A stretch of DNA of 64,000 nt from an uncultured Chloroflexia bacterium (lineage in GTDB: Bacteria > Chloroflexota > Limnocylindria > QHBO01), in NCBI GenBank assembly GCA_963827475.1, contig CAWHAZ010000005.1, forward strand, positions 704,001 through 768,000, in the 5' to 3' direction. This document shows positions 38,095 through 52,288 of this stretch, piece after piece (the first letter of the stretch is position 1; each line of letters begins with the position of its first letter). The position numbers and the translations under genes were made by a program. The notes below the pieces were generated by a model. That model was not told the origin of the DNA and did no database searches. It was given only the letters and a program-made list of their open reading frames with translations.

Positions 38095-40156
38095 TCTTCG
38101 GGGCCCCGTTGAGGTGGTACGGGACGTCGATCACGACCGTGTTCGCGCGCCAGAAGAGGCGCAGCTTGAGCCGGAGCGCCGTCTGGTTGTGGAGCGGGTA
38201 CTCCCACAGGTGGCGAGGCACGAACTCGGCGAGGACGACCGTCGTCGGACGGGTGGGGTCCATGGTCTCGGTGGCATCCAGGTAGGCGAGCAGCGGGGCC
38301 ATCAGGGCCCGGTACGGTGACTCGAGGATGACGAGCTTGACCGGGCCGCCCCACGCCTCCCATCGCTCGCGCATGGCGATCACCGCCTCGCCGTCGGTCG
38401 CGACGTGGACCGCGGTCACGTCATTCGAGATCGCGCGGGCGTAGGCCAGCGCGCCCAACGCGGCGCGGTCGATGCGGCTGACCGGGACGACCACCCGTGG
38501 CTCGCGCTGGGGCAGGGTCTCGCCGGTCTGGGTGACGGCGAGCATCCGTTCCACCGATCGGTAATGGCCATGGATGGCGGCCATGAGGCCCACCAACACC
38601 GGGATCAGGAGCAGGACCACCCACGCCCCAAGCCCGAACTTCGCGGCGCCGACCATGACCGCGACCGCCCCGGTCACCACGGCGCCGGCGCCGTTCAGCG
38701 CCGCCCGCCACCGCCAGCCCTGCTGCTCGAAGCGCAACCGCCACCAGTGGACGACCATCCCGGACTGGCTCAGGGTGAACGCGATGAACACGCCGATCGT
38801 GTACAGCGGGATGAGGTTCGTGACGCTGCCCTCGAAAGCGACGATCAGAAGCGCCGCCAAGCACCGACGAGGACCATGATCCCGACGCTGAACGACAGCC
38901 GGTCGCCGCGGAACTGGAACTGCCGCGGCATGAACCCGTCCTTGCCGAGGATGCTGGCCAGCCGCGGGAAGCCCGCATACGCGGTGTTGGCGGCGAGCAC
39001 CAGGAGCAGCGCCGTCGTCAGCTGCATGGCGTAGTGGAAGGGGCTGCCGGCGCCGACGAGGGTGCGCGTGATCTGGCTGATGACGGTCTCCTGTTCGGTC
39101 GGGTCGGGCACGATCCCGAGCTGGCTGGCGAGGAAGCTGATGCCGAGGAAGATCGTCGCGAAGAGCGCACCCATCATGATGCAGGACGCGCCGCGCGTTG
39201 CGTTGTCTCCGGCGGCCTGAAGGCCGGCACGCCGTTGGAGACGGCCTCGGTCCCGGTCAGCGCCACGGATCCGGACGCGAAGGCGCGAAGGATGAGCAGG
39301 ATGCCCGAGCGCCTGCGATCCATGGGCTTCGGCCCAGCCTGGCGGCGGGACATACGGTGGGAAGCCCATTCGCCGGCGTACAGCCAGAGGCCCAGGCCGA
39401 TCAGGGCGTAGATCGCCGACCAGGTAGACGAAGATCGGGAGCGCGAACACGTTCGCGCTTTCCCGGATGCCCCGCAGGTTGCCGATCCACAGCACCGCGA
39501 CGAAGCCGACGCCGAGCAGCACGCGGTAGTCGAACAGCCCGGGAAAGATCGATGTCAGGGCGGCCACCCCGGCCGCGATCGAGACGGCCACGGTGAGCAC
39601 GTAGTCGGTCATCAGCGCTCCCGCCGCGATCAGTCCCGCGCGGCGGCCGAGGTTCTCGCTGAGCCACGATGTACGAGCCGCCGCCGTTCGGGATAGGCGT
39701 GGATGGTCTGCTGGTAGCTGGTGACGACCACCGCCAGCACGATGACGATCGCGATGGTGAGCGGCATGGTGAGGGCCAGCGCGCCGGCCCCGGCCAGGAC
39801 GAGGACGCGCATGATCTCCTCGGTGGCATAGGCCGACGAGGAGATGTTGTCGGAGGCGAACACCGCCAGCCCCTTGACCGGCCCGACCCGCTCGTCGAGC
39901 TCGCGATCGCTCGCGATCCGGCGGCCGATCGCCACCCGCTGGAGGCGATGCGACCGCGCGGGCGACGAACGCCGGTGGGCTCGAGCACCCGCTCGGAGGC
40001 GACGAGGTGGCCCGGCGCCTCGCGCCGGAAGTCATCGGCGAACGGCTCGACGACCCGGACGTAGTGGTCGCCCGCGAGCCGGCCCTGGATCGGTCGGAGC
40101 TGGCGCAGATCGTGCGCCGGCTGGTGCGCGGCGTCGCCCTCCGCGGTCTCGGTCAT
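38087..40156 (-). CDS. APC-family KimA/YdaO-like K+ transporter, multiply frameshifted
   Basis: ASDNISSSAYATEE, DYVLTVAVS, NLRG.RES, AANTA..GFPRL, LIPLY.IGVF.AFTLSQ.GM, SPYR, LHNQTAL. Confidence 0.88.
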
Positions 40157-40407
40157 CGGACGGCCTCGACGGTGATGTCGCACCCGGTGTCGTCCGAGGG
40201 CCAGACGGCCCGGGCGGTGAGGCCCGCTTCCGCGGACATCGCCTGGGCGATCGGCAGCAGTCGCTCCGCGTCGTGGAACCCGATCAGGGTGACCTTCTGC
40301 GCCCCTCCGGCGACGATGAGGTCGATCGCCGAACGAACGTGTTGCAGGCCAGGATCGCGGTCGGTGATCTGCGCGCCGACGGTGATCGGTATGGCTGAGG
40401 CATCCAT
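40153..40407 (-). CDS. Small hypothetical protein translationally coupled to the KimA-like gene
   Basis: 84 aa; GAGG SD before ATG; stop overlaps the next ATG (ATGA). Confidence 0.6.
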   Translation of the reverse strand: MDASAIPITVGAQITDRDPGLQHVRSAIDLIVAGGAQKVTLIGFHDAERLLPIAQAMSAEAGLTARAVWPSDDTGCDITVEAVR

Positions 40408-40461
40408 ATCCTCACGATGTCACCGCCGCCAAGAGGAAACGGCGCTCCGACCCCTGTCAGA

Positions 40462-40479
40462 CGCTCAAGTTCCGCTCAA
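40462..40479 (-). promoter_or_regulatory. Putative OmpR/KdpE-type direct-repeat binding site
   Basis: TTGAGCG repeated with 11-bp period on the minus strand upstream of the transporter operon. Confidence 0.45.
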
Positions 40480-40495
40480 ACTCGCCCGTGCTCGG

Positions 40496-41209
40496 CTAGG
40501 GCGGATTCCGAACTCGGTAGCCGACTCCCGGCTCCGCCACGAACAGATCAGCGAGCCTTCCGGTGCGGTCCGCGGCCGCCAGCTTCTTTCGGATCTGGCT
40601 GACGTACACGTGGATGTAGTGGTCCTCGCCGGCGTACGCCTCGCCCCACACCGCGCGGAGGAGCCGTCCGCGAGTCACCAGCCGACCGGGATGCGCCACC
40701 AGCTCGGACAGGATCTGGAACTCGCGCGGCACGAGGGCCACCGGAGCGTCGTCGACCCGCACCTCGTGGCGCACCGTGTCGATCTCCAGCGATCCGTTGC
40801 GGATGACGCCGCCCTGATCGGCGGCCGCTCCTCCGGTCCGCCGGAGGACGGCGCGGATTCGGGCGTGCAGCTCGGCGGTGCTGAACGGCTTGGTGACGTA
40901 GTCGTCCGCGCCGCGTTCCAGGGCCTCGACCTTGGTGGCCTCGCCGCCGCGTGCCGAGAGGACGACGATCGGGACCGTCCCTTCCTTCCGGATCCGCCGG
41001 ATGACGTCGAGCCCGTCGCGATCGGGCAGCCCCAGGTCGAGGAGCACGGCATCCGGCCGCCGAGCCGCCCACGCGCGCAGGGCGGCGGCGGCGGTAGCCG
41101 CCTCCGCCACCTGGTAGCCGTGGCCGCGCAGATTGCGGACGAGCTCGGCGCGCGTGCCCTCGTCGTCCTCAACGAGCAGGACCGTCGGGCCGGTGGTCTC
41201 CGCCGTCAT
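40496..41209 (-). CDS. kdpE: OmpR-family response regulator, KdpE-like
   Basis: LLDLGLPD.DG, GADDYVTKPF, LL..VWG, Y..Q.R.KL, EPGVGYR. Confidence 0.88.
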   Translation of the reverse strand: MTAETTGPTVLLVEDDEGTRAELVRNLRGHGYQVAEAATAAAALRAWAARRPDAVLLDLGLPDRDGLDVIRRIRKEGTVPIVVLSARGGEATKVEALERGADDYVTKPFSTAELHARIRAVLRRTGGAAADQGGVIRNGSLEIDTVRHEVRVDDAPVALVPREFQILSELVAHPGRLVTRGRLLRAVWGEAYAGEDHYIHVYVSQIRKKLAAADRTGRLADLFVAEPGVGYRVRNPP

Positions 41210-41212
41210 CGG

Positions 41213-42775
41213 TCAGGCCCCGACTTCGGGCGGCTGGGGAGCGGCCGGCAGGTCGACCTCGACCGCCAGCCCGCCGAGCTCGCTCGGTAGCGCGCGCACG
41301 TCGCCGCCCATGGCCTCGACGAGGCCACGGACGACCGCCAGCCCCGTTCCGGTGCCCGTTCGTGCTCCGCCCGCGGGCGTTCCAGCCCGGTAGAACTTCT
41401 CGAACAGGTGGGGGAGCGCGTCTGCGGCAACGCCGGGGCCGCTGTCCTCGACGCGGATGCGGACCACCCCGTCCACCGGAGCTGCCCCGATCCGGATGCG
41501 ACCACCCGCTGGGACGAAGGCCGCGGCGTTGTCGAGCAGGTTGGCCAGGACCTGTCCCAGGAACACGGGATCGGCATACACCGGGGGCAGGTCATCCGGC
41601 CAGTCGTAGGCGAGCTGGCGACCGGTGAGACTGCTTCGGTATCGGTCCACCGCGCTGGTCACCGCCTCGTCAATGGCCAGGACCTCGCGATCCGCCCGCA
41701 GCGACCCGCCCTCGATCCGACCCAGATCGAGAAGGTTGGTCACCATCCGATTCAGGTGATCCGCCTCGCGGTCGATGGCCTCGGCGCTGGCCAGGCGATC
41801 CGCCTCCGGCACCGCTTCGGGCCCTTCGAGGATGGTCCCGGCGGCCGCGCGGATGGTGGCCAGCGGTGTCCGCAGATCGTGCGACACCGACTCGAGGAGG
41901 GCGGTCTTGGCCGCGTCACTCCGGCGCGCGACCTCCGCCGTCCGCGCTTCCGCGGCAAGCCGGTCCTGTTCGTAGGCCTGGCCGATCTGGTCGGCGGCGG
42001 CCGCGAGCAGGCGGGTCGCGCTCCGCCCCGGCTCACCGTCGTGCCGCGCGCGGACGGCCCAGATCGATCCCAAGCTCTCGCCGGCCGCCTCGATCACGAC
42101 GCGATACGCGCGCTGGTCCTGCTCCGTCGGCCTCGGGCCGGCCGGCGGATGGACCTGGATCCATCGCGCAGGCGTGTCTCCCGGCATGCGCCGCAGGACG
42201 ACGTGATCGACCGATGCGTCGGGCACGGCTCCCAGACCACCCGTATCGGTCACCACCCGCTCCCTGCCGCTCGGCCGAGCGAGCGCGACGAGGACCCGTT
42301 CCAGATCCGCCTCGGCCCGCACCGTGCCGGCGAGGTCTGCGAGCACGGTCGCCGTATCGGGCCGCGTCGCGAGTGTCCGGCTGATCCGGAACAGTGCCGT
42401 CGCTTCGTGCTCGCGCTCGATGGCCGCCTGGGCTCGGCTCCGCTGGGCGGCGGCCAGCTGTCCCACCGCGATCCCCAGGACGAGCAAGAGGATCAGGTTG
42501 AGCAACTCCCCCGGGTCGGAAACGGCCAGGGTGAAGTTCGGGTGGACGAAGAGGAAGTTGTAGAGCAGAAACGCGCCGATGGCGGTCGCGATCGCCGGCC
42601 ACACGCCGAGGTACACCGCGCTGGCCAGCACGGCGAGCAGGTACGTGGACGACGCATCGGGCACGCCGACCCCCCGCTCGAGGATCGCGACCAGCACCGA
42701 TGTCGCGGCCAGAAGCAGCGCGACCCCGATCGCGGCCCTGACCGCCGGGACCACCCAGGATCCCCGGATTGCCAC
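41213..42775 (-). CDS. kdpD: KdpD-like sensor kinase (DUF4118 TM + GAF-like + HisKA/HATPase), lacking N-terminal KdpD/Usp domains
   Basis: 4-TM with FLLYNFLF..P..T, SVSHDLRTPL, NLLD..R, NLLDNA, GTGLA. Confidence 0.82.
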   Translation of the reverse strand: MAIRGSWVVPAVRAAIGVALLLAATSVLVAILERGVGVPDASSTYLLAVLASAVYLGVWPAIATAIGAFLLYNFLFVHPNFTLAVSDPGELLNLILLLVLGIAVGQLAAAQRSRAQAAIEREHEATALFRISRTLATRPDTATVLADLAGTVRAEADLERVLVALARPSGRERVVTDTGGLGAVPDASVDHVVLRRMPGDTPARWIQVHPPAGPRPTEQDQRAYRVVIEAAGESLGSIWAVRARHDGEPGRSATRLLAAAADQIGQAYEQDRLAAEARTAEVARRSDAAKTALLESVSHDLRTPLATIRAAAGTILEGPEAVPEADRLASAEAIDREADHLNRMVTNLLDLGRIEGGSLRADREVLAIDEAVTSAVDRYRSSLTGRQLAYDWPDDLPPVYADPVFLGQVLANLLDNAAAFVPAGGRIRIGAAPVDGVVRIRVEDSGPGVAADALPHLFEKFYRAGTPAGGARTGTGTGLAVVRGLVEAMGGDVRALPSELGGLAVEVDLPAAPQPPEVGA

Positions 42776-42851
42776 GCGAGCATGGTAGGCGGCGCCGGGG
42801 ACTCGATCCGGCGGCTTCTCGTGGCGCCCGTGGCATACTGGCCCGACTCGA

Positions 42852-42929
<78 letters not shown>

Positions 42930-42947
42930 TCAATCTGAGCACGAAAT

Positions 42948-42977
42948 GGCCCCTCTCGGCCCGACGCCGGAGGGGCC
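42948..42977 (+). terminator. Stem-loop downstream of tRNA-Pro
   Basis: GGCCCCTC(T)CGGC-ccgac-GCCGGAGGGGCC hairpin. Confidence 0.55.
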
Positions 42978-43011
42978 TCTCGTTGGGCCTGTAACGGCCA
43001 GGATGCGCTCA

Positions 43012-43059
43012 CGACCTCTCGAAGAGCCTAGGAAGCCCAGGTGGGCGTCGAGATCTGAC
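43012..43059 (+). repeat. 48-bp inter-gene repeat, copy R1 (divergent)
   Basis: cgacctctcgaagagCCTAGGaagcccaggtgggcgtcgagatctgac; 35/48 identical to R3 ungapped. Confidence 0.75.
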
Positions 43060-43120
43060 GCATACTGCGCCGCGTGGAGCGGGAGCTCCCCAGCGGAGCC
43101 CTTCGGAGGACGGAGCGACC

Positions 43121-43693
43121 ATGACGGCAATCGGACTACCTCGGACCGCAGCCGAGCGGACTCTCGGGCTCCAATGGGTTCTCGCAGTCGTGATCGGCTG
43201 GGTCATCGGTTTCTTCGTGTGCGAATGGCTCGAAGAGTTCCTGTCCACAGCCTTCGTTGATGGGCTGGTCATTGGCACCGCCGTGGGCATCGCCCAGGGA
43301 CTCGTCCTTCGGAAGGGGATCGCTCCCGTCCTCCCTTGGGTGGCGCTTAGCATCGTGGGCTTCGCGATCGGGAAGCTCGTGAGCGATCTCGTCGGCCAGG
43401 CCATGCCGGAGCCGCTCGGAGTGGTCCTGGGAGGGGCCGTGATCGGTCTGTCGGCGGGAATGGCCCAGTGGCTGATCCTGAGGCGCCGATTCCCCCAGGC
43501 GGGGTGGTGGATCGGGGCCAATGTACTGGGCTGGGCCGCAGGCTGGAGCCTGATCACCGCTGCGGAGGGTTCCGATGTCTCCGTCGCGATGATCTATGCG
43601 CTAGGAGCAGCGGGCGCTGCGCTGGTCGGAATCGTCACAGGCATCGCCCTCATTGGCTTGGTACGCGAGCCGATTGCCACTCCCGAGCGGTGA
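43121..43693 (+). CDS. Multi-pass membrane protein with repeated G..QW.ILR units
   Basis: 190 aa, ~6 TMs, GGAG SD; stop abuts repeat R2. Confidence 0.8.
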   Translation: MTAIGLPRTAAERTLGLQWVLAVVIGWVIGFFVCEWLEEFLSTAFVDGLVIGTAVGIAQGLVLRKGIAPVLPWVALSIVGFAIGKLVSDLVGQAMPEPLGVVLGGAVIGLSAGMAQWLILRRRFPQAGWWIGANVLGWAAGWSLITAAEGSDVSVAMIYALGAAGAALVGIVTGIALIGLVREPIATPER

Positions 43694-43741
43694 TCGCCTC
43701 TCGGGGAGCCTAGGGAACCGAGGTAAGCGTCGGGAGCCGGC
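43694..43741 (+). repeat. 48-bp inter-gene repeat, copy R2
   Basis: tcgcctctcggggagCCTAGGgaaccgaggtaagcgtcgggagccggc; 39/48 identical to R3. Confidence 0.88.
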
Positions 43742-43779
43742 TGTAATACCCATGTTCAGGCCACCCGGACACCCCTAGA

Positions 43780-45104
43780 GTGGCCGACGTGCCACACGAG
43801 GAAATCTCAATTCGGCATCGGTTGGGCACGTGGGTCCACCAGCACCAGCGGGCTGGCGGAATCGGCCTCACGCTGGCGGCCTTCGCCCTTCTCGGCATCG
43901 CGGTTCTCATTGGCTGGGCGATCGTGACTGGGTCGCCGCCGCCATCCGCAAGCGTCGGCCCTTTGAGCACTCCAGAACAACCGTCATCGGTCGAGCCAAC
44001 GCAAGCTGCGACAGCCACCCCGAGCCTATCCCTAAGCCCTGCCCCGGCCGCCGGATGGACGCCGGTCGTAATCCCTGGAATCGCCTACCTGAACAGCATC
44101 GCCGAGCACGATGGCCGGCTGCTCGCCGCCGGCTTCAGCGCGGGCGTCAGCGCCGGCGTCGGGTCCTTGGCCACCAGCGACGATGGCGTGACCTGGACAT
44201 CGGTGCTGGACCCCGGGTACCAGTTCTTCTCCGTGGCAGCTGGCGAGCCGGGCTTCATCTCCGTGGCAACGCGGTACGCGGTGCCGATGGGAATGCCGGA
44301 ACACGCGTACCTGTACTCCGATGACGGCCGTACGTGGCATGAGGCAGTTCCACCCGCGGAATGCTTCGCAGGGTCGATTGAGCCTTACGAGGGGGGGTTC
44401 ATCGGGCTCGGTGGAGAGTGCCGGGCCGAGGGAGATTTTCGGCCGAGCGCGCTCCATATGATCGGCTCGCCAGACGGCCGCTCTTGGACGTCGCAGATCA
44501 ACGACCAGATGCTCGCGGACTCGTGGGCCACCGATGGCCGCCGATTAGTGCTCTTCCAACACGACCGGAGTGGCCAGGCACCCCCCGAGATCTGGATCAG
44601 CGACGACGCGGCACAGAACTGGCGCAATGTGCCAGGTGCCCTTCCGGCCGGCGTTCACGTGGGCTGCTGTGAGTATGGGCACGGGCAGTTTCTAGCACCG
44701 GGAGGCTGGCTGAGGCGCGAAGGCGATCCAGATCCCGCGGTCTGCGTCTCCGCCGATGGGGAGCGTTGGAGTTGCGAGGTCATCCCACCGCTCAGCGGCG
44801 AACTGGCTGGCCGTGGCTATCTGGGGCGCGCAATCGCGGTCACGCCGACGGGTTATGCGTCGCTGGTGGAGTACACCAAGAATCCGTTCCCCCGTACGAC
44901 TTTTCGACTGACATGGTCAGCGCGAGCTCGCGGGACGGGCTCCACTGGAGTTTCGAATTGGTGCCGGAGCTCGCCAACAAGCTGCCGACCGGTCTCGTGT
45001 GGACCAGCTACGGCCTCTTTGCCTGGGGCGGGACCGTCCCGAACGTGCAGATCGGGGACCTTTCGGAACCGTACATCGACGTGCAGCGGGCTCCGCTGCC
45101 GTGA
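43780..45104 (+). CDS. Membrane-anchored extracellular Asp-box (BNR)/beta-propeller protein, frameshift near 44900
   Basis: TM helix, P/S/T linker, repeated S.DG..W motifs (SDDGVTW, SDDGRTW, SPDGRSW, SADGERW, SRDGLHW). Confidence 0.75.
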
Positions 45105-45220
45105 CCTTCGTTGCGCGGGCGAATGGGTCGAGCTTGACAGTGGCGCAAGGCCCATGGCAACCCCCGGGTCGCTCCATACCCCCATAACGTAGGTTCGCCC
45201 CGGCGGAGCTCCCGGCGGTT

Positions 45221-45268
45221 CGACCTCTCGGGGAGCTGCAGGAACCGAGGTGGGCGTCGGGAGCCGGC
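45221..45268 (+). repeat. 48-bp inter-gene repeat, copy R3
   Basis: cgacctctcggggagCTGCAGgaaccgaggtgggcgtcgggagccggc; identical to R5. Confidence 0.93.
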
Positions 45269-45444
45269 TAATCCGGCGGTGCTGCGTCGCACCACATTTC
45301 CCACTAGGCGCAGTCTGATCGGGTTTCGGCCTGTCATAGTGACTGGGTCCGGCATCGACGAGATGCGTCGGCAACCCTTGGAATGGGGGGCGTGCATTCG
45401 TCGGATGGCGGCGATTCGAAGGGCTCAGGCGCTGGAGGAAGTCC

Positions 45445-46173
45445 ATGAAGCGCCTCTCCATAATCGTCGCGGTCGCCGCGATGGCAGCGTTGATCTCGGC
45501 TCCGGTCGCTGCCGCAAAGCCGTTCCAGAATGTCTTCATCTCGAATGCGGCCGCCCTTGTCGCTTCGATCGCCCCCAACGATGGCCGGAATACGCAGCTA
45601 CTCATCCTTGGCAGCGACTATCGTGAGGTTTCTGGCGGGGTAAATGGATCCGGCGGAAGCTTCGCCCAGAGCTTCGCCTTTGTGGATGGCATCCAGCGGT
45701 ATTGCGACGCTGCGTCCAACGACCTAATCACTCGCAACATCAATGGCTTGAATCTCGAGGTCGGAGCAGCTGGTGTCACAGTCCATCGACTCGGGAATTC
45801 TGGTCGGATCCAGGCCGTCTTGGCTGACGTTCTAGTCTCTGAATTCCATCTCCATTATCCGGAGCCTGGCTGCACCGGCCTCGACCCCGTGCTCACATTT
45901 GAGTTCGGGACGGCGACGATCACCCTCGACGTCACCTTCAGCTCAACGGCCCCGACCAGTCCAGCACCGCCACTCACGCTGACCCTTCCATACAAACCGG
46001 GTCTGGGGGTTGACGTCAGCATCAGCAGTCAATTGCAGGCGCCAGCTGTGCTATCCGGAACAGTTCACGCGACCGATCCAGATTGGGACATCGGTGACGT
46101 CAGCTCGGTCCCGGCGTCACAGTGCTTCATCGCAAAGAGCAGCAACCTCGCAATAACCGTGCGGACACCTTAG
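45445..46173 (+). CDS. Secreted hypothetical protein
   Basis: GGAGG SD, signal peptide MKRLSIIVAVAAMAALISAPVAA, atypical lower-GC codon usage. Confidence 0.75.
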   Translation: MKRLSIIVAVAAMAALISAPVAAAKPFQNVFISNAAALVASIAPNDGRNTQLLILGSDYREVSGGVNGSGGSFAQSFAFVDGIQRYCDAASNDLITRNINGLNLEVGAAGVTVHRLGNSGRIQAVLADVLVSEFHLHYPEPGCTGLDPVLTFEFGTATITLDVTFSSTAPTSPAPPLTLTLPYKPGLGVDVSISSQLQAPAVLSGTVHATDPDWDIGDVSSVPASQCFIAKSSNLAITVRTP

Positions 46174-46236
46174 CGGCGCTCCCAGAAACCTGAGACCGCG
46201 CCCAGACACCGATTGACGGTCTCCGACGGCTGAAAC

Positions 46237-46270
46237 GAGCCAGTAGCCGAGGCGGGCGTCGGGAGCCGGC
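46237..46270 (+). repeat. Inter-gene repeat, copy R4 (right part only)
   Basis: gagccagtagccgaggcgggcgtcgggagccggc; last 24 nt match R3 at 23/24. Confidence 0.8.
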
Positions 46271-46612
46271 TACGGCTCCGTTGGAGCGGCGTCTGTCATG
46301 CGACCCGCCGTGTCGTGGTCGCAGACTCGGCATTCGTAGACACCCTTGGACTTGCTCCACCATTGGCCGAACAGTACGGAGCCGCAGTTGGTGCAGACCG
46401 GCTGTGGACCGCTCCGCTGAGTGGCCGCAACGGTCCTTCCCAGCCCGACCACGAGAAGGACGCCCATCCCCGCCATCCACAACATGATCGGTAGGAGGAC
46501 TCCGATGTACCTCGCCGCCCGACCTCGGGTCGCTATAGATCTGGACAACCCAGAGACCCATCACGAGGGTCAGGATGCCGACGGCGGCCAGCCAACGGGC
46601 GAGAGTATTCAC
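46270..46612 (-). CDS. Small 2-TM protein with C-terminal Zn ribbon, frameshift near 46520
   Basis: MNTLARWLAAVGILTLVMGLW.. joined to ..YIGVLLPIMLWMAGMGVLLVV..CTNCG..YECRVCD; -10 TAGGCT 6 nt before GTG. Confidence 0.6.
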
Positions 46613-46672
46613 GGCGACAGCCTAATACGACATGGGGCGCGAATATGCGCCCCGGCTCATGCGGTCAGCCTG

Positions 46673-46720
46673 CGACCTCTCGGGGAGCTGCAGGAACCGA
46701 GGTGGGCGTCGGGAGCCGGC
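46673..46720 (+). repeat. 48-bp inter-gene repeat, copy R5
   Basis: 48/48 identical to R3. Confidence 0.93.
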
Positions 46721-46754
46721 CTAGCCCGATTGCGACAGGCCAAACACTTACGGG

Positions 46755-47114
46755 CTAGCTGATGTCCCAGATCACGGCGCCGACGAGCGGTCGCAAGACC
46801 GAGAAGCTGTACTGTGCCCCGATCGGCAGGTCCATGAATGCCGTCGCCTCGCGATTGAGCCTGCCCCAGTCGCTATCAGGGTCCCTTGCCGCCTCCTCCA
46901 TCGCGTCGAAGGTGGCCATCGAATCGAAGCGCCACAGCAGCCGGTATTCGCCGGCCTTCTTCTCGGAGCTGAAATACACGATATAGGTTCCGAGGTACTC
47001 GACCCCTGGAGGACTGACTTCCTTGGTGAGCCGGTCGGTCTCTTCGGTCCACTTTTGGAACGCCTCTTCTTGACCGCGCTTGACGTTGAACCCTTGCTCG
47101 ACGATCAGTGACAC
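46755..47114 (-). CDS. Hypothetical protein, possible dimeric alpha+beta barrel (ABM/NIPSNAP-like)
   Basis: F.VK.GQEEAF..W, GVEYLGTY, W.FDSMA.FD pattern; AAGGAG upstream. Confidence 0.65.
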   Translation of the reverse strand: MSLIVEQGFNVKRGQEEAFQKWTEETDRLTKEVSPPGVEYLGTYIVYFSSEKKAGEYRLLWRFDSMATFDAMEEAARDPDSDWGRLNREATAFMDLPIGAQYSFSVLRPLVGAVIWDIS

Positions 47115-47179
47115 CTCAAGACTCCTTCAGGTGCGGGATTGCTGGTGGCGTCGATCTTAGGTCTGGGTACCATCCCGGG

Positions 47180-47419
47180 GTGTCAGGACTCACCATCGCA
47201 CCGCTTGGCTGGGCTCAGGGCGACGACGCCCGGTGGCATCGGATCTACGCCGTATCCGGCTTCCTGAAGAGCGGCGATCTGTGGGTCGCCAACTGCTCCT
47301 CCAGCGTCACGCCGTCCGAGTCCGCCCTCCTCGAGGAGGTCCCGACCGGTGGCGTCGGCCCGAGCTGCCGGGCGGCGGACAACGAGGTCGCGCTGGCGAT
47401 CGACCATCTGCTCCTGTGA
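47180..47419 (+). CDS. Small hypothetical protein
   Basis: GTG 6 nt after TACCAT; 79 aa; followed by GAGG and the next ATG. Confidence 0.45.
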   Translation: MSGLTIAPLGWAQGDDARWHRIYAVSGFLKSGDLWVANCSSSVTPSESALLEEVPTGGVGPSCRAADNEVALAIDHLLL

Positions 47420-47427
47420 GGTAGGTA

Positions 47428-47712
47428 ATGGACTACATGGAGAGCATGCCCACCGAGATCCCACGGGACCGGGTGCTCGTCCACAACAACGTCAAGCCCA
47501 CCCGGCACCTGGGCGCTCGTGGGTTCCGGGCATGGTTCCAGGCATCGGTGGCCAGGTTGGAGCCGTGCCCTTGCGACTGGTCCGGCCTCAGGCACTACCG
47601 GGTCACGCCGCAGCGAGCCGTAGGGCCATCGGTACACTCCAACCGATGTCCCGGCCTCCCGCCTCCGAGCCGCGCTGCCTCCGCTGCGACATTGCCACTG
47701 ACCGTCCTGTAA
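47428..47712 (+). CDS. Small hypothetical protein with CPC..W..HYR motif
   Basis: SD-like GAGGT upstream; VLVHN.V..GFRAW..CPCDW.GL.HYR looks like a real protein. Confidence 0.55.
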   Translation: MDYMESMPTEIPRDRVLVHNNVKPTRHLGARGFRAWFQASVARLEPCPCDWSGLRHYRVTPQRAVGPSVHSNRCPGLPPPSRAASAATLPLTVL

Positions 47713-47812
47713 CCCTTTCTGTAGCCCTTAGCGCGTGGTTTTGGGGGCTACGGATACTCGCCCCTGGACGGTTTGCACGCTCAAATCGAACCGCCCGAGC
47801 GTGGCTGCGCGA

Positions 47813-47861
47813 GAATGGGGTTCAAGAGGTCGCTGGTTCGAATCCAGTCGCCCCGACCATC
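47813..47861 (+). repeat. att-like duplicate of the tRNA-Pro 3' half (island 1 end)
   Basis: gaatggggttcaagaggtcgctggttcgaatccagtcgccccgaccatc, identical to 42883-42931. Confidence 0.95.
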
Positions 47862-48000
47862 TTTGTGGCCAAGGGTAGGACCCTTCCCAAGGCGATCCTG
47901 CGGGTGTAGCGTTCAGACGGCGCATGCCCAGCGCCGAGGGCAGACAGGCTCGGTGGGGCGACCTTCACGTGTCCGAAGCCACCGCTGAATCGAGTTCCTC

Positions 48001-48282
48001 ATGCTTGGCCGAGTACGCTGCCCCGGTAGTCAGACCCCTCGGCACACGCGTGCCCGGGCCCTGGGGAGAAAGGGGAGGGACACGCCTCTCACGATTGTCA
48101 ATCGGACCAAGACGGTCCGATGGGTTGGCACGCGCCAGGCCCACGCCTATCCCATGGGCAAGGACTACATCGGCTCTCGGTCATTGTGTGGCCGGGAGGA
48201 GCTCATCGAGGGCCTCCGAGTGTCGATGGACAGTGGGAATCCCAGGTGCGCCGACTGCCAATGGCTACTCGCAAGAGTGTGA
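48001..48282 (+). CDS. His/Cys3 zinc-finger mini-protein, copy 1 (start uncertain)
   Basis: VRWVGTRQAHAYPM..SLCG..NPRCADC. Confidence 0.6.
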   Translation: MLGRVRCPGSQTPRHTRARALGRKGRDTPLTIVNRTKTVRWVGTRQAHAYPMGKDYIGSRSLCGREELIEGLRVSMDSGNPRCADCQWLLARV

Positions 48283-48480
48283 CTTGACCCCGAGGCCCGG
48301 AGCTTGCCCCTCCGGGCCTTGTGGTTTCCGGCCCCAGCGCCGCTGCTCGGTGGTGCGATCTTTACGTTTGCGAAGCCACGCCTGAATCGAGTTCCCCCAT
48401 GCTTCGCCGGGTACGCTGCCCGAACAGATCTGGCCCCTCGGCAGACGCGTACCTGCGCCGAGGGGTCTTTCCGACCCAAG

Positions 48481-48692
48481 GTGGACGAAACGCCTCTCAC
48501 GATTCTCCATCGGACCAGGACGGTCCGATGGGTTGGCACCCGCCAATCCCACGCCTATCCCATGATCAAGAACTACATCGGCTCCCGTTCGTTGTGTGGT
48601 CGGGCGGAGCTCATCGAGGGCCTCCGAGTGTCCATGGACAGTGGAAATCCCGAAGTGCCCCGAATGCGAATGGCTGCACGCAAGAAAGTGAC
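48481..48692 (+). CDS. His/Cys3 zinc-finger mini-protein, copy 2 (1-nt indel near 48650)
   Basis: VRWVGTRQSHAYPM..SLCG..NP then KCPECEW in the shifted frame. Confidence 0.55.
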
Positions 48693-48701
48693 GACGACCA
48701 G

Positions 48702-48908
48702 GTGAACCGAATCCGACTTCTCCGCCGCTCCCGGGTCCGCTGGCTTGGCGTCCGCCAGGCCCACGCCTATCCCATGACCAGGGATCTCATTGACTCCAAG
48801 TCGCTGTGCGGCGCAGAAGAGCTCCTGCTCGGGGTTCGCGCCTCACGGGATAGTCGCTATCCCAAGTGCCCCCAGTGCGAGTGGCTGGACGGCCAGAGCG
48901 CCGCGTAA
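48702..48908 (+). CDS. His/Cys3 zinc-finger mini-protein, copy 3
   Basis: VRWLGVRQAHAYPM..SLCG..YPKCPQCEW. Confidence 0.6.
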   Translation: MNRIRLLRRSRVRWLGVRQAHAYPMTRDLIDSKSLCGAEELLLGVRASRDSRYPKCPQCEWLDGQSAA

Positions 48909-48969
48909 CCCCCACGAGCGCCCACCTGCACGCTGACATCGGGGTCCCGAGCGTGGTCTAGACTGACGC

Positions 48970-49000
48970 GGTTCAGGAGGTCGCTGGCTCGAACCAGTCG
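48970..49000 (+). repeat. Degenerate second att-like tRNA-Pro fragment (island 2 end)
   Basis: ggttcaggaggtcgctggctcgaa-ccagtcg versus tRNA ggttcaagaggtcgctggttcgaatccagtcg. Confidence 0.8.
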
Positions 49001-49034
49001 TGACCGTCCGACGGGGGCCGTGAGGAGGTATGGC

Positions 49035-49397
49035 ATGGGATTTCTCGTCGCCGTCCTGGTCAACACGGCAGCCCTGTGGGTGGCCGTGTATCTGCTCCCC
49101 GGGCTCGAGTTCCAGGGCGAGTGGTACCAGTGGCTCATCCTCGGCCTGATCTTCGGGGTGGTGAACGCCATCGTGAAGCCGATCCTGAAGCTCCTCACCT
49201 TCCCGATCACGATGGTCACCCTCGGGCTGTTCCTGCTCGTCCTCAACGCGCTGATGCTGTACCTCACCAGCGCCCTGGCCGGACCGATCCTGTCGGCGTT
49301 CACGATCAGCAGCTTCGTGGACGCGCTCCTGGGCGCGATCATCATCGCGGTGGTCGGGATGGTCCTCCACGCCGGCGCGCGGCGGATGGGCGTCTAG
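49035..49397 (+). CDS. YvlD/DUF360 4-TMS 'phage holin family' membrane protein
   Basis: VNAIVKPILKLLTFP...TLGLFLLVLNA. Confidence 0.88.
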   Translation: MGFLVAVLVNTAALWVAVYLLPGLEFQGEWYQWLILGLIFGVVNAIVKPILKLLTFPITMVTLGLFLLVLNALMLYLTSALAGPILSAFTISSFVDALLGAIIIAVVGMVLHAGARRMGV

Positions 49398-49439
49398 CCG
49401 CCCGTTCGCGGCCGCTCTGCCCGTCCCGCGACTCCACGC

Positions 49440-50096
49440 GTGCGCACGCCGCCCCGGGTCGCCTGGCTCTTCGCGCTGTGGGTCGGCGTCCTGACCCTGC
49501 TCACCGGTCCGCTGCTGCTGATCAACCCGCTGTTCATCGGCTGGCTGCAGGACCGCCATGACGTGGCCGACGGGCTGCACCTGCCCCAGGACGAGCTCGA
49601 CCGAATCAACGGCGAGATCGTGTGGGACATCTTCTCCGGCGGCGACTTCGACGTGACGTTCGACAACGGCGACCCGGTCCTCGACGCCGATGAGCGATCG
49701 CACATGGGCGATGTCAGCCGCCTGGTCCGCATCCTCGTCATCCTCGATGCGGTGGCCATCGCCTTCGCCGCCTGGGGCGGGAGGCTGCTGCGGACCGATC
49801 CCCACCGCCTGGGACGAATGCTCATCGCGGGCGCGGGCACGGTCGGCGTGGCGACGGTGGTGATCGGCGTCCTCGCGGTCGTGGCGTGGGACAGCGTCTT
49901 CACCCTGTTCCACGAGCTGCTGTTCCCGCCCGGGACGTGGTCGTTCCCGCCGGACTCGACGATGATCCTGCTCTATCCGCCTGACTTCTGGTTCGAGGCG
50001 GCCATGATCGCCGCGGTCCTGGTCCTCGCCACGTCGGCGACGCTTTCGTACGGCGGATGGCTGCGCCTGCGCGAGGCGGACGAGGCGGCCGCGTGA
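49440..50096 (+). CDS. DUF1461/TIGR01906 membrane protein (Lit-like)
   Basis: E.SHM.DV, F.LFHELLF, W.F, LYP.DF. Confidence 0.8.
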   Translation: MRTPPRVAWLFALWVGVLTLLTGPLLLINPLFIGWLQDRHDVADGLHLPQDELDRINGEIVWDIFSGGDFDVTFDNGDPVLDADERSHMGDVSRLVRILVILDAVAIAFAAWGGRLLRTDPHRLGRMLIAGAGTVGVATVVIGVLAVVAWDSVFTLFHELLFPPGTWSFPPDSTMILLYPPDFWFEAAMIAAVLVLATSATLSYGGWLRLREADEAAA

Positions 50097-51299
50097 TCAC
50101 TGTCGAGGAGGCGCGCGAGCGCCTGCTGGCCATCAGGCCGGCGACACGAACCGAACTCGTTTCCCTGACCGATGTGGTGGGCCGCGTCCTGGCCCAGCCT
50201 GCGATCGTGGCCCCGATCGACGTGCCCCCGTTCGCGAACTCGGCGATGGACGGATACGCGGTCCGAGCGGCGGATCTCCCCGGACGGCTGCGAATCACCG
50301 GTGAGGTGGCCGCCGGCGCCGGTCAGCTGCCGGACGTCGAGGCCGGGACCGCGGTCCGAATCTCCACCGGCGCGCCGATGCCACCGGGCGCCGACGCGGT
50401 GGTGCCGATCGAGCAGGCAACCGACACCGGTGAAGACATTGAGGTCACCGAGCCCGTCGCCGTCGGTAACCACGTTCGCGCGGCGGGCCACGATACGCGG
50501 AAGGGTGACGAGATCGGTATCTCGTCCCCACTGTCGCCCGCCGGCATTGGCGTCCTCGCGTCCCTTGGCCTGTCGGACGTGACGGTGCGTGCTCGGCCGC
50601 GGGTGGCGATCCTCTCCAGCGGGGAGGAGCTGACGGCTCCCGGGGCACCGCTGGCGGAGGGCCACATCTACGACGCGAATGACCCGGCCCTGCAGGCCGC
50701 GGTCACCGAGATGGGCGGAGAACCGGTCGCGCTCCCGCGAGTCGGCGACGACCTTTCGGCGGTCGAGGCCGCCCTTCGCGACGCGAGCCACGGGGCGGAC
50801 CTGGTGGTGACCTCCGGCGGGGTCAGCGTCGGGGCCCACGACCACATCCGCGACGCCATCGAGCGCCTCGGCCAGCTCGACTTCTGGCGCATCGCCATGC
50901 AGCCGGGCAAGCCGCTGGCGGTCGGTCGCATCGGCGAGACCACCGTCATCGGTCTACCGGGCAATCCGGTCAGTGCCCTGGTCGTGGCCGAGCTGCTGGT
51001 CCGGCCCCTGGTCCGGGCCGTCCTCGGTCTTGCCGGGGATGGGCGCCGGCACGTCCACGCGACCCTCGACCAGGACATGCGCAAGGATCCCGAGCGCGCG
51101 GCATATCTGCGGGTGGTCGTGCGCCAGACCGATGCCGGCTGGGCCGCGAGCCCAGCCGGGGGCCAGCTCTCGTCGCAGCTCCGCTCGCTGGCCGCGGCCA
51201 CGGGGCTGCTCGTCGTCCCGGTTGGGGAGCCCGCTGGACGAGCGGGGCACGCCTACGACACGATCCTCGCTGTCCGATCCCGATCCGGTGGAAGGCTGA
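50093..51299 (+). CDS. moeA: Molybdopterin molybdotransferase MoeA (reads in-frame into moaC)
   Basis: PPF.NSAMDGYA, I.TGAPMP.GAD.VV, SGGVSVG, QPGKP, GLPGNP. Confidence 0.92.
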
Positions 51300-51304
51300 C
51301 GTCG

Positions 51305-51784
51305 ATGAAACCGACCCATCTCGACGACGAGGGCGCGCCACGCATGGTCGACGTCAGCGCCAAGCCGATCACCGATCGACGCGCGGTGGCGGAGGCGACT
51401 GTCCGGATGCGCCCCGAGGTGCTGGCCACGCTCCTGGACGCCGCCGGCCCGAAGGGTGACGCCCTGGTCGTGGCACGGCTGGCGGGCGTGGCGGCCGCGA
51501 AGCGCACGGCCGAGCTCATCCCCCTCGCCCACCCGCTTCCCCTCGACGTGGTCGAGGTCGAGCCCACCGCGGATCGCGAGGCGGGGACGCTGACCCTGCG
51601 CGCCGAGGTCCTGGCGACGGCACGAACCGGAGTCGAGATGGAAGCGCTGACCGCCGCCGCCATCGCGGCGCTCACGATCTACGACATGGCCAAGGCGCTT
51701 CAGCGCGACATCGTCGTCGAGCGGGTCCGCCTCCTGGAGAAGTCGGGCGGTCGCAGCGGCGACTTCCGCGCCGAGGACGCCTGA
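51305..51784 (+). CDS. moaC: Cyclic pyranopterin monophosphate synthase
   Basis: THLD..G..RMVDVS.K, KRT.ELIPL.H, TGVEMEAL, IYDM.K, KSGG.SG. Confidence 0.93.
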   Translation: MKPTHLDDEGAPRMVDVSAKPITDRRAVAEATVRMRPEVLATLLDAAGPKGDALVVARLAGVAAAKRTAELIPLAHPLPLDVVEVEPTADREAGTLTLRAEVLATARTGVEMEALTAAAIAALTIYDMAKALQRDIVVERVRLLEKSGGRSGDFRAEDA

Positions 51785-51787
51785 CCG

Positions 51788-52288
51788 ATGACGCGCCCGC
51801 GGCTGATGCCCGAGGCAGTGGTCGTGGTCGTCTCGACCCGCGCGGCCGCCGGCACCCGCGCGGACACAGTCGGCCCGGCCCTGGTGGACGAGCTCAAGGC
51901 CGCCGGGTGGGACGTCGCCCTCGACCCGATCGTCGTCCCCGACGACGAACCACAGCTGGTGGAGCTCCTCGAGCAGCTATCCGATGACGGGCATCGTCTG
52001 GTCGTGACCACCGGCGGCACGGGACTGACGCCGACCGATCGGACGCCGGAGGCCACCTCGTGGGTGGCCGATCGGCTCGTCCCGGGTCTCGCGGAGCTCA
52101 TGCGAGCGGAAGGCGTCGCTTCGACGCCGCTCGCCGCGCTATCCCGCGGCGTGGTCGGCACTCGGGGCGCGACGCTCATCGTCAACCTGCCCGGTTCGCC
52201 CGATGGGGCCCTCGAGTCGCTTCACGCCGTCATGCCCGTCCTGCGCCACGCGGTGGATCAGCTGGCCGGCGGAGACCACCATGGCTGA
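51788..52288 (+). CDS. mog: MogA/MoaB molybdopterin adenylyltransferase
   Basis: VVPDD, TTGGTG..P.D.TPEA, SR...G, NLPGS. Confidence 0.88.
   Translation: MTRPRLMPEAVVVVVSTRAAAGTRADTVGPALVDELKAAGWDVALDPIVVPDDEPQLVELLEQLSDDGHRLVVTTGGTGLTPTDRTPEATSWVADRLVPGLAELMRAEGVASTPLAALSRGVVGTRGATLIVNLPGSPDGALESLHAVMPVLRHAVDQLAGGDHHG

Follow-up and report, generated by a model that had tools for sequence, protein, structure and literature searches.

A genus-specific imperfect hairpin repeat between small accessory genes in a tRNA-Pro island of Ca. Limnocylindria

The repeat array and its island

The window analyzed here, a stretch of 64,000 nucleotides, contains a 4.9-kb island located at the 3' end of a tRNA-Pro gene. 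The island is lower in GC (59-67%, compared to 70-74% in the flanks), has no integrase gene, and carries an array of five co-oriented repeat copies (R1 to R5), all on the plus strand (Table 1). A previous sequence-only reading of this DNA had described five copies of a non-coding element of about 48 bp within a tRNA-Pro island. Our repeat search returned the same copies and intervals (spacings of 682, 1527, 1002 and 450 nt from R1 to R5), and the island location was upheld. The array is indeed real and non-coding, but profile analysis showed that the repeat unit is longer than 48 nt. The 24-nt core, searched with up to 3 mismatches, occurred four times in the 64-kb window, always on the plus strand, against a mean of 0.00 in 100 dinucleotide shuffles.

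Table 1. Features of the tRNA-Pro island (window coordinates).
Feature	Position	Strand	Remarks
tRNA-Pro(GGG), island anchor	42853..42929	+	ARAGORN; Rfam tRNA 63.2 bits
Island left end with GC hairpin	42930..42980	+	common to the different tRNA-Pro islet of G002
R1	43012-43059	+	73% to reference R3; 3' arm only; profile positions 48-92
Gene 1, multi-TM protein, 190 aa	43121..43693	+	no family
R2	48-mer 43694-43741; whole unit 43655-43747	+	81% to reference R3; full copy
Gene 2, TM + Asp-box repeats	43780..45104	+	frameshifted near 44.9 kb
Junction motif	45124..45149	+	92% over 26 nt to L147 3590-3615; elsewhere precedes ssb2 3' fragments
R3	48-mer 45221-45268; whole unit 45176-45272	+	reference; full copy with 5' extension
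Gene 3, secreted protein, 242 aa	45445..46173	+	no family
R4	46223-46270 in repeat search	+	65% to R3; good only from ~46242
Gene 4, TM + CxxC..CxxC protein	46270..46548	-	stop overlaps R4 end
R5	46673-46722	+	3' arm only; 46673-46720 is 100% to R3 over 48 nt
Gene 5, 119 aa	46755..47114	-	no family
Two small genes	47108..47712	+	common to the G013 tRNA-Leu island, there between two element copies
Right end of island 1 + direct repeat of tRNA-Pro 3' end (47813-47859)	47713..47859	+	
Second, tandem islet without element copy	47860..48993	+	ends in weaker tRNA 3' remnant (48970-48993)

As previously proposed, each of the four intervals holds a single predicted gene, and the labels given to these genes fit the translations (multiple TM segments; repeated S-x-D-G-x-x-W; a signal peptide; a TM segment with two CxxC pairs). 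The two stop codons said to abut repeats were also confirmed: TGA at 43691-43693, and a minus-strand TAG at 46270-46272 that overlaps the last base of R4. R2 and R3 matched the nhmmer profile of the element over positions 9-101 (E 9e-14) and 3-99 (E 4.5e-22), respectively, and both fold as the family hairpin. Since the profile match of R2 covers its whole unit, the last codons of gene 1 overlap the R2 5' arm. Of the 3' arm, R4 keeps just the final ~30 nt (46242-46273, profile positions 67-98), and it retains the 24-mer core with one mismatch. In R5, an alternative 7-bp closing stem is formed with unrelated upstream sequence.

Direct repeats of the tRNA 3' end (47-49 nt, 100% identity to tRNA-Pro) flank the island. 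In seven relatives (G004, G016, G015, G008, G006, G013 and G017) the site is empty, and the tRNA is followed directly by a holin gene; in G002 and G010 it is occupied by other islets. The ends of the island are shared: window 42805-42980 is 90% identical to L046 (4721-4890), and the right end is 85% identical to the G010 tRNA-Pro islet (L047 5291-5437). Around the end of the second islet, window 48926-49088 has counterparts in G010 and G002, where they precede the holin gene. The stretch 42930-42980 is not ancestral, because the holin gene lies within ~20-60 nt of the tRNA in the seven relatives.

Islands linked to tRNAs and cis-mobilisable elements are built by tandem accretion at att sites. 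With its tRNA 3' repeats, an empty site in relatives and no internal integrase, the whole island is of this CIME-like, integrase-less kind; it also comprises two tandem units, and its ends are conserved between different islets. However, the two units are very small (4.9 kb and 1.1 kb), and a second repeat family, with no relation to the att repeat, subdivides the interior.

None of the island's ORFs, the module genes of the array included, matched a Pfam or NCBIfam family. Relatives of gene 1 (67-73%) were found in G010 (three places), in G013 (1.4 kb from ssb2, the second ssb gene) and in G003. In a soil contig gene 1 is 96.6% identical and its downstream neighbor is different; upstream of gene 1, a soil contig also has a fuller copy of the element. 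Another portion of the array, window 46254-46664 around gene 4, is spanned by a soil contig. In gene 2, the repeated motif resumes after the frameshift in the frame of 44766-45104. Window 43830-45149, 1.3 kb that make up almost all of the R2-R3 interval, and G012:C152:1628-2946 share 77% identity; in G012 the gene 2 counterpart lies between a full ssb2 and an ssb2 3' fragment and is not bounded by the element. The junction motif downstream of gene 2 also stands before ssb2 fragments in G012 and in locus B of the same genome as the window. No relative of gene 3 was detected in the other 17 genomes of the genus.

Structure and conservation of the element

The 48-mers are the 3' arms of an imperfect hairpin that is longer, ~70 nt, and reaches ~100 nt where a 5' extension is present. 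Across 57 copies the consensus starts ..GCCGGACTCCCGGCG and finishes ..CGTCGGGAGCCGGC, and the stem base lacks an AAC/GTT pair. All ten full copies adopt the same fold, made of a stem, a bulged A, an internal loop, a second stem and a variable apex. Pairing was found in 82.2% of cells, against 37-55% when the partner was slid, and covariation exceeded that of all 500 shuffles; these values relate to a structure derived from the same, related sequences, and RNAalifold alone gave a weak consensus (-2.86 kcal/mol). Fold z-scores were modest (-0.35 to -3.71), one of the ten copies beating all 200 shuffles. Two wobble pairs are conserved, one as G-U in 49 and the other as U-G in 44 of the 57 copies, and P2 shows two compensating states; jointly these features indicate one folding strand, as is the case for integron attC sites.

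The 3' arm is near-invariant across species whose core genes are only ~70-90% identical, and it is retained in copies that have lost its pairing partner. This pattern resembles that expected if a sequence-specific protein recognizes the arm. The element ends sharply on its 3' side. On the 5' side the limits are ragged: the 39 copies reduced to the 3' arm begin anywhere from profile position 38 to 67, with no fixed crossover. The element has no U-tract; canonical intrinsic terminators occur separately, behind ssb2 and rseP. In the Rfam search of window 40000-52000 (E up to 1) only the tRNA was matched, and searches of plasmid, phage and viral-contig sequences returned no match to the element.

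Distribution, polarity and shared modules

The element is nearly confined to one genus of soil Chloroflexota, Ca. Limnocylindria by record titles. It was found in 14 of the 18 genomes of this genus and in 8 of 61 genomes of the family; two other genera have sporadic single copies. Copy number ranges from 0 to 12 between species, and the genome carrying the window has 12 copies in 3 loci. The sequence-only reading would have been undermined by genome-wide scatter beside core genes, a match to a known IS end or Rfam family, or fixed synteny of the intervening genes. For the most part it withstood these checks: copies are clustered, Rfam, plasmid and phage matches are absent, and relatives do not preserve the synteny of the intervening genes.

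Adjacent copies are co-oriented in 39 of 39 pairs examined, distributed over 24 loci, with no inverted doublets. The 44 genes predicted between copies point either way, 26 with the element and 18 against it. The median gap between copies is 881 nt, and a single predicted gene is present in 22 of the 39 intervals. Arrays are found behind tRNA-Pro, tRNA-Leu, tRNA-Val, ssb2, rseP and groEL, and copies adjoin the core genes groEL, serA and rseP. At any one hot spot the orientation is constant across species. The size of the gap between nusA and rseP ranges from 0.36 to 7 kb.

Many copies lie just past the stop codon of a co-oriented gene (ssb2, rseP, genes 1-3 and several locus B genes), and some are located between convergent genes (R4, locus C). 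These positions, together with wobble pairs that fit RNA as well as a single DNA strand, would suit an RNA-level element owned by each gene, such as a terminator, a 3'-UTR stabilizer or a small RNA, the array being simply a run of such genes. We consider this very improbable: the element never flips although 18 of 44 array genes are antisense to it, one copy lies between divergent genes (L009 9800), and the missing U-tract, the separate terminators, the lack of an Rfam match and the modest z-scores all point the other way. RNA contigs yielded nothing usable.

A selfish REP/REPIN- or MITE-like repeat, spread by a possibly strand-specific transposase with the intervening genes being incidental, is also unlikely. 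It would account for a GC-rich intergenic palindrome limited to one genus apart from sporadic single copies, for the copies beside groEL, serA and rseP, and for the variable copy number. However, copies are few and clustered in three loci, always direct and of constant orientation at each hot spot across species, and no Y1 HUH, DDE, IS110 or TnpB gene was found in the genome of the window. Nor was a clean filled/empty site pair or target duplication found; the single junction examined was either a rearrangement (synteny break) or an assembly joint. Most of the relatives are metagenome bins, in which repeats can cause chimeric joins; one suspicious join is L014, with flanks 97.7% and 85% identical to G000. 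REP/REPIN sequences and their RAYT transposases, as described in PMC3116915 and PMC3337134, share with the element short GC-rich, extragenic, lineage-specific palindromes, but number hundreds of copies where 12 clustered copies are found here. Identity with REP/RAYT was rejected on these grounds, on the 39 direct pairs out of 39 and on the zero matches to PF01797 (RAYT).

Species share modules but carry them at different hot spots. The sequence at G013:C1:1203804-1204246, in an array at tRNA-Leu(CAA), has 88% identity to window 47168-47610. Element copies in several loci are adjoined by a gene-30 family, by a small TM gene and by a lipoprotein family; the small TM gene and the element recur as a unit in 4 genomes, which between them represent 3 kinds of hot spot. 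In G017, ssb2 is followed by three units of element plus gene, then by a 3' fragment of ssb2 and a terminator; G008 and G012 have single genes enclosed by 3' repeats of ssb2. Segments common to several loci often end away from element copies. The cassette-like punctuation previously suggested is supported, with co-oriented, gene-sized intervals (39/39), variable hot spots and modules shared across spots and species.

Recombinases and the proposed movement of modules

The genome carrying the window (90% complete) contains two PF00589 matches, XerD- and XerC-like, and no other tyrosine recombinase. There were no matches to the recombinase or transposase families PF00239, PF01797, PF00665, PF01548, PF01609 and PF07282. 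Scores with the integron-integrase model TIGR02249 were 124.8 and 121.3 bits, for a cut-off of 265. XerC/XerD types only were present in 7 of the 14 element-bearing genomes of the genus, and the extra integrases of the genus sit in element-free genomes (G016, G005). Among 300 scanned neighbor proteins, one recombinase was detected, a truncated phage-type integrase. A dif-like ATAA-N6-TTAT motif was found neither in the element nor anywhere in the assembly. The proposal of a recombinase serving the site in trans is unsupported, given the Xer-only repertoire, the single neighbor in 300, the ragged 5' limits and a module that in another genome is bounded by ssb2 3' fragments. As the genome is only 90% complete, an enzyme could sit in a gap. 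No recombination joints or circles were observed; candidate joints were explained by multi-mapping of the repeat.

The attC sites of integrons carry the boxes R'' (RYYYAAC) and R' (GTTRRRY) at their two ends, and CALINs, by definition, may lack IntI. The absence of attC boxes and of intI, and the exclusion of a CRISPR array, were correctly stated in the sequence-only reading. The description of CALINs in Cury et al. 2016 (PMC4889954) resembles our arrays in its co-oriented imperfect-hairpin sites ~0.4-2.3 kb apart, in intervals that mostly hold a single small gene of accessory or ORFan type, in the lack of a nearby integrase and in the high turnover between relatives. In contrast to CALINs, which occupy one platform, the arrays stand at several anchors (tRNAs, ssb2, rseP, groEL), genes run in either direction (18 of 44 against the element), 5' limits are ragged, repeats of another kind (ssb2 3' fragments) may delimit a module, and IntI is missing from the whole genome. 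Identity with attC/IntI failed, with neither R''/R' boxes nor IntI; the hairpin form agrees.

An integron analog, in which the hairpin would be an attC-like single-strand site used by XerC/XerD or by an unrecognized enzyme in trans through one-gene circles, is possible though rather doubtful. It is favored by co-orientation regardless of gene direction, by the long imperfect hairpin seen in 10 of 10 full copies, by its pairing, covariation and strand-fixing wobble pairs, by the near-invariant 3' arm with its sharp limit, and by arrays beginning just behind conserved anchors. Moreover, canonical ATAA-N6-TTAT is absent from the assembly. As described for CALINs in PMC4889954, arrays that lack IntI occur commonly in other bacteria, and integrons can be present in Chloroflexi. 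Against it stand the missing IntI, the lack of an array-linked recombinase bar the truncated one, the extra integrases in genomes without the element, the ragged 5' limits, the ssb2 fragments around gene 2 in G012, the common segments ending away from the element and the dependence of the structure on related sequences, with its weak RNAalifold energy.

Xer sites of the dif and pdif type are 28 bp long, arranged 11-6-11 with ATAA..TTAT inner ends. Xer-dependent modules and elements (pdif modules, IMEX) are comparable in that XerC/XerD are the sole tyrosine recombinases and small modules are bounded by short sites. However, 70-nt hairpins replace the 11-6-11 site and are co-oriented rather than alternating; identity with dif was rejected, given the lack of the motif. 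That the strand-specific hairpin, with its near-invariant 24-nt arm, is a site for XerC/XerD (or an unrecognized enzyme) moving one-gene modules among landing pads is, in our opinion, a doubtful proposition. If true, it would represent an integron-like cassette economy in Chloroflexota, arisen independently of IntI and attC.

The element is previously undescribed, and is integron-like in behavior without integron sites or enzyme. Our tentatively preferred reading is that this genus-specific imperfect hairpin repeat punctuates small accessory-gene modules at a few hot spots, and that the modules are moved by general recombination. Modules would be gained, lost and moved via recombination at or beside the repeats. 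In a Campbell-type route, DNA with one copy would recombine with a resident copy; in a replacement route, DNA flanked by two copies would swap out the resident interval. Either route would always yield co-oriented copies around gene-sized inserts. Since the same logic is seen with duplicated anchor 3' ends (tRNA, ssb2), we infer that the agent would most likely be host general recombination, together with old integrase-mediated insertions at the anchors, and not an integrase of the integron kind dedicated to the site. Homologous or Campbell-type recombination fits the anatomy at least as well as a site-specific system.

Several points count against general recombination, among them the lack of observed joints or circles, the 90% completeness of the genome and the origin of most relatives as metagenome bins. 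The conserved core of ~24 nt is short for RecA-type exchange; and the 3' arm is near-invariant, with a sharp 3' limit and strand-fixing wobble pairs.

Repeat copies and genes of the tRNA-Pro island

The array in the window is a real feature. A repeat search recovered all five of the 48-bp copies (R1-R5) that the sequence-only reading had described as co-oriented, each on the plus strand, with spacings of 682, 1527, 1002 and 450 bp. As claimed there, R3 and R5 were the same at 48 of 48 nt, R2 and R1 were 81% and 73% identical to R3, respectively, and R4 was partial, its good match being confined to the last 24-30 nt. A 24-nt core of the repeat, with up to 3 mismatches allowed, was counted 4 times in the 64 kb, whereas 100 shuffled sequences gave a mean of 0.00. 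Both stop codons said to abut repeats were found, one gene was predicted in each of the four intervals, and the gene labels proposed earlier agreed with the translations.

Pfam and NCBIfam recognised no family for any ORF between 43121 and 48908. We compared the genes with 18 genomes of the genus (G000-G017, G000 being the genome of the window). Gene 3 had no relative among the other 17 genomes. Relatives of gene 1 (67-73%) were detected in G010 (3 places), G013 and G003, while gene 2 had a single relative, in G012, and the pair at 47108-47712 had one, in G013. A frameshift near 44.9 kb interrupts the Asp-box gene (43780-45192), whose S-x-D-G-x-x-W motif goes on in the frame of 44766-45104; this is either a pseudogene or the result of an assembly indel.

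The island as a whole has the features of an integrase-less tRNA-linked island. The GC content of its 6.1 kb is 59-67%, compared with 70-74% in the flanks, and the 3' 47-49 nt of the tRNA are repeated with 100% identity at 47813-47859, with a weaker copy at 48970-48993. Since the tRNA 3' end recurs twice, the island consists of two tandem islets. The holin gene lies about 20-60 nt behind the tRNA in G004, G016 (an unpublished genome), G015, G008, G006, G013 and G017. Elsewhere the gap is about 0.5 kb (G012, G014), 0.6 kb (G010), 1.25 kb (G007) or 1.6 kb (G002). The islets of G002 and G010 had only the ends in common with the window island (42805-42980 at 90%; 47713-47859 at 85%) and were devoid of element copies. 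The second islet (47860-48993) contains a tandem duplication of about 400 bp (48070-48243 and 48478-48651, 88%), and its small ORFs have a common Cys-Pro-x-Cys-Glu-Trp motif; a 79% relative in G003 adjoins a gene 1 relative.

Coordinates of the main features. Unprefixed positions are those of the window, C5 is the contig that contains it, and L numbers are sequence pieces.
Feature	Position	Strand	Content
Left flank of the island			KdpD-like histidine kinase, response regulator
tRNA-Pro(GGG), then 6.1 kb of lower-GC DNA	between the flanks		
Right flank of the island			holin_4_2-family membrane protein, Lit, MoeA/MoaC
Window array	43012 (R1), 43694 (R2), 45221 (R3), ~46242 (R4), 46673 (R5)	+	5 copies
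Locus B	C5:1057796-1066728	-	6 copies, reaching contig end
Locus C	C5:901355-901442	-	1 copy
ssb2 3' repeat, locus B of G000	L009 10571-10734		
Other ssb2 3' repeats	L025 1278-1430; L024 6185-6373; L147 2942-3105 and 3611-3774		
Integrase, nusA-rseP gap of G016	L145 3774-4859		with HTH_17 gene
Integrase, nusA-rseP gap of G005	L146 913-1995		
Truncated integrase, metagenome contig	L104 1455-2189		

Hairpin structure and distribution of the element

Alignment of copies from the own genome and its relatives revealed that conservation extends about 25-50 nt upstream of the 48-mer, so that the unit is larger than 48 nt. The profile built from this alignment spans 43655-43747 at R2 and 45176-45272 at R3; for R1, R4 and R5 the match is limited to the 3' part. 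The full unit can be modelled as a single long imperfect hairpin, with a basal stem of 5 + 9 bp containing a bulged A, an internal loop, a second stem of 8 bp and an apex that usually displays a palindromic hexamer (CCTAGG, CTGCAG or CCGCGG). The 48-mers correspond to its 3' arm.

Fold statistics were calculated on 57 distinct near-full copies, which are related sequences and the very ones from which the structure was derived. Standard pairs occupied 82.2% of cells, compared with 36.8-55.5% when the 3' partner was slid by 1-3 columns, and the covariation score of 0.151 (shuffles: 0.115 ± 0.006) was reached by 0 of 500 shuffles. Two neighbouring pairs of the inner stem displayed two compensating states (UA 20, CG 17, UG 6, GC 1; and GC 21, CG 20, UG 4). 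Moreover, wobble pairs were retained, G-U in 49 and U-G in 44 of the 57 copies, indicating that the folding strand is fixed. The hairpin architecture was adopted by 10 of 10 full copies folded singly; single-sequence z-scores were modest (-0.35 to -3.71). RNAalifold, applied to the first 18 copies, gave a weak consensus (-2.86 kcal/mol) that missed the outer stem. In 66-nt pieces centred on the 48-mers, where the 5' arm is cut off, no fold signal was detected (z -1.65 to +0.70). Copies retaining only the 3' part mostly had no replacement pairing partner, an alternative closing stem being found in 2 of 9 (R5 and R1). Rfam contained no match to the element, and that this hairpin is an RNA element appears very improbable.

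In the 3' tail, many loci often have CTAG or CTA within 0-5 nt after GCCGGC, and CCTAGG is common at the apex; stop codons on both strands are thus supplied by the element. Several antisense genes terminate exactly at this stop-supplying sequence. An ECF-type promoter reading (GGAAC..CGTC) was rejected by eye, as the spacing was wrong.

A total of 107 copies at 68 loci was collected, including 59 full, 39 3'-only and 8 5'-only copies. Adjacent copies were co-oriented in 39 of 39 pairs (24 loci, metagenome loci being counted without de-duplication against genus loci). The gap between copies had a median of 881 nt (range 12-2346); two pairs whose members lie 12 and 15 nt apart probably each represent one copy split in two. 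According to a crude gene caller (score: GC3 minus GC2), 22 intervals contained one gene, 8 two and 2 three, the other 7 having no gene. The genes ran with the element in 26 cases and against it in 18, so that polarity is a property of the array and not of the genes. Partial copies had ragged 5' limits (profile positions 38-67), which weakens the idea that 5' and 3' halves are half-sites sharing a core, like attL and attR.

The own genome assembly is 90% complete and comprises 7 contigs totalling 1.92 Mb; all 12 of its copies are located on C5. In the genus, the element was present in 14 of 18 genomes (G000 included), with 1-12 copies each; no copy was found in G003, G004, G005 and G016, which are 57-88% complete. 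Within the family it was detected in 8 of 61 sampled genomes, namely all 6 sampled from the genus and, as single copies, two from other genera. An exact 19-mer search of GTDB species representatives returned 40 loci. The remainder of the element was present at only 13, each with the record title Candidatus Limnocylindria, Chloroflexia or Chloroflexota; the other 27, including matches in other phyla, lacked this remainder and were taken as chance. Among metagenome contigs, 30 of the 53 with the 19-mer had the element, in up to 4 co-oriented copies per contig. Plasmids and phages gave no match to the element, and viral contigs gave 0 matches to the 19-mer. A literature search found no work linking Limnocylindria with 'palindromic' and only unrelated work with 'cassette'. 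The element was not placed among REP/RAYT or dif sequences. No clean pair of filled and empty sites, as expected of a MITE, came to light, and a selfish repeat of REP/MITE-like kind is regarded as improbable.

Insertion hot spots and shared modules

The copy at locus C lies 78 nt behind rseP, in the same direction, and is abutted by a convergent small TM gene. Within the genus, the nusA-rseP gap measures between 0.36 and 7 kb; the element also adjoins rseP in G009 and G012 and lies within the 7-kb gap of G007. Intact phage-type tyrosine integrases occupy this gap, directly behind rseP, in both G016 and G005, and a 5'-truncated one stands behind rseP on a metagenome contig, beside a 5'-half element copy. 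Since G016 and G005 lack the element, the rseP-linked integrase does not track it. No copy was present in the examined parts of the two loci with intact integrases, nor any element-like sequence between rseP and the truncated integrase, and a role of the element as att site of this enzyme was rejected.

The second ssb gene (ssb2; 137-139 aa, C-terminal EPLEAVVAM) is another anchor. The element starts at its stop codon in G015 and G017. In G017, ssb2 is followed by three successive units, each of an element and an antisense gene, then by a 110-nt repeat of its own 3' end and a canonical terminator. G008 and G012 have single genes flanked on both sides by directly repeated ssb2 3' ends (164-190 nt). 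Such repeats (last 110-190 nt) flank inserted genes in at least 5 genomes of the genus, which makes the ssb2 3' end an insertion hot spot by itself. Locus B of the own genome includes an ssb2 3' fragment, and the full gene starts contig C3, at the contig's very end. Locus B is therefore probably an island of this kind that the assembler broke.

At tRNA-Leu(CAA) (G013, G001, G006 and G015), the distance from the tRNA to the copy downstream is 98-477 nt, or 53 nt from a tRNA fragment; tRNA and copy always point the same way, and the genes beyond differ by genome. Copies just behind groEL (G008, G014 and one metagenome contig) are always antisense. A three-copy array in G010 (L144, C7:744000-762000) is located at the distal end of a degraded integrative element, which has an integrase fragment, a Gp3-like directionality factor and HNH and lies beside tRNA-Val. 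In G001, the element lies between tRNA-Leu(TAG) and serA at a synteny break (L014 6614-6882). The two sides of this junction match places 90 kb apart in G000, at 85% and 97.7% identity; the junction reflects recent transfer or else a chimeric contig, and was left out as evidence.

Several modules are shared between hot spots. Window positions 47168-47610 recur at 88% in the tRNA-Leu island of G013, between two element copies, and almost the entire R2-R3 interval (43830-45149) has a 77% counterpart in G012, where ssb2 stands on one side and a 3' fragment of ssb2 on the other. Gene 2 is followed by 26 nt (45124-45149) that are the motif standing before ssb2 fragments elsewhere. The small TM gene with its convergent copy follows rseP in G000 and ssb2 in G008, and is part of the tRNA-Leu island in G013 and G015. 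Locus B, the nusA-rseP gap in G007 and arrays in both G001 and G002 have a 360-aa lipoprotein-like gene in common. A soil contig contains gene 1 at 96.6%, with a fuller upstream copy and unrelated sequence past the downstream copy. This recurrence indicates that a common pool of small modules circulates among few landing places. Limnocylindria are abundant, uncultured bacteria of soil and freshwater with small genomes; a small-gene pool moving among few hairpin-marked hot spots would explain a flexible accessory set in streamlined genomes.

Recombinases and origin of the arrays

Array polarity, gene-sized spacing, variable content and shared modules match cassette logic. The recombinase in trans that had been proposed to serve the sites did not emerge, as no enzyme was found that tracks the element. 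The own genome has two PF00589 genes, one XerD-like (22616-23512, 20 kb upstream of the array) and one XerC-like (5 kb before the window start), both scoring far below the integron-integrase cut-off. Six other families (resolvase, Y1 HUH, rve, IS110-DEDD, DDE_Tnp_1 and TnpB zinc ribbon) gave no hits there. In 7 of the 14 element-bearing genomes (G000, G002, G009, G014, G013, G008 and G015), XerC/XerD types were the only tyrosine recombinases present. Within 2.6 kb of the copies, a scan of 300 of the 329 predicted proteins yielded one recombinase, the truncated integrase behind rseP, and two nuclease-like proteins. No dif-like ATAA-N6-TTAT occurs in the own assembly (1.92 Mb), despite the XerC- and XerD-like genes; this lineage may have an unusual site for chromosome-dimer resolution, or the site may lie in an assembly gap.

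We rank first general recombination atop old integrase insertions at the anchors, which we hold to be a serious possibility, if not quite an even one. Indeed, duplicated tRNA and ssb2 3' ends leave the same footprint, the element is tracked by no enzyme, partial copies have ragged 5' limits, and a different repeat bounds one of the modules in another species. One incoming copy would recombine with one resident copy, and arrays built in this way would necessarily be co-oriented. A dedicated or Xer-served site-specific system is rather unlikely; the near-invariant 3' arm that outlives its pairing partner, the sharp 3' limit of the element and the folding strand fixed by wobble pairs argue for it.

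The closest known kind is the CALIN, an integron cassette array that has no integrase (PMC4889954). Neither attC boxes nor IntI, both integron features, were found for the element, which is therefore not classed as a CALIN member. Should an enzyme be found, the arrays would be an integron analogue of independent origin. If there is none, they would be a clear natural case of integron-looking arrays made by ordinary recombination, which bears on the origin of CALIN-like arrays and perhaps of new integron cassettes.

Four sequencing runs, each with 5-6% of the sampled words, were also considered. Five skip joints in run contigs were discounted as excision because these contigs fit more than one repeat copy there, and an RNA contig end at 46697 was read as an assembly break inside a repeat and not as evidence of transcription. 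In soil/rhizosphere assemblies, bins with R2-R5 were several-fold deeper than the flanks.
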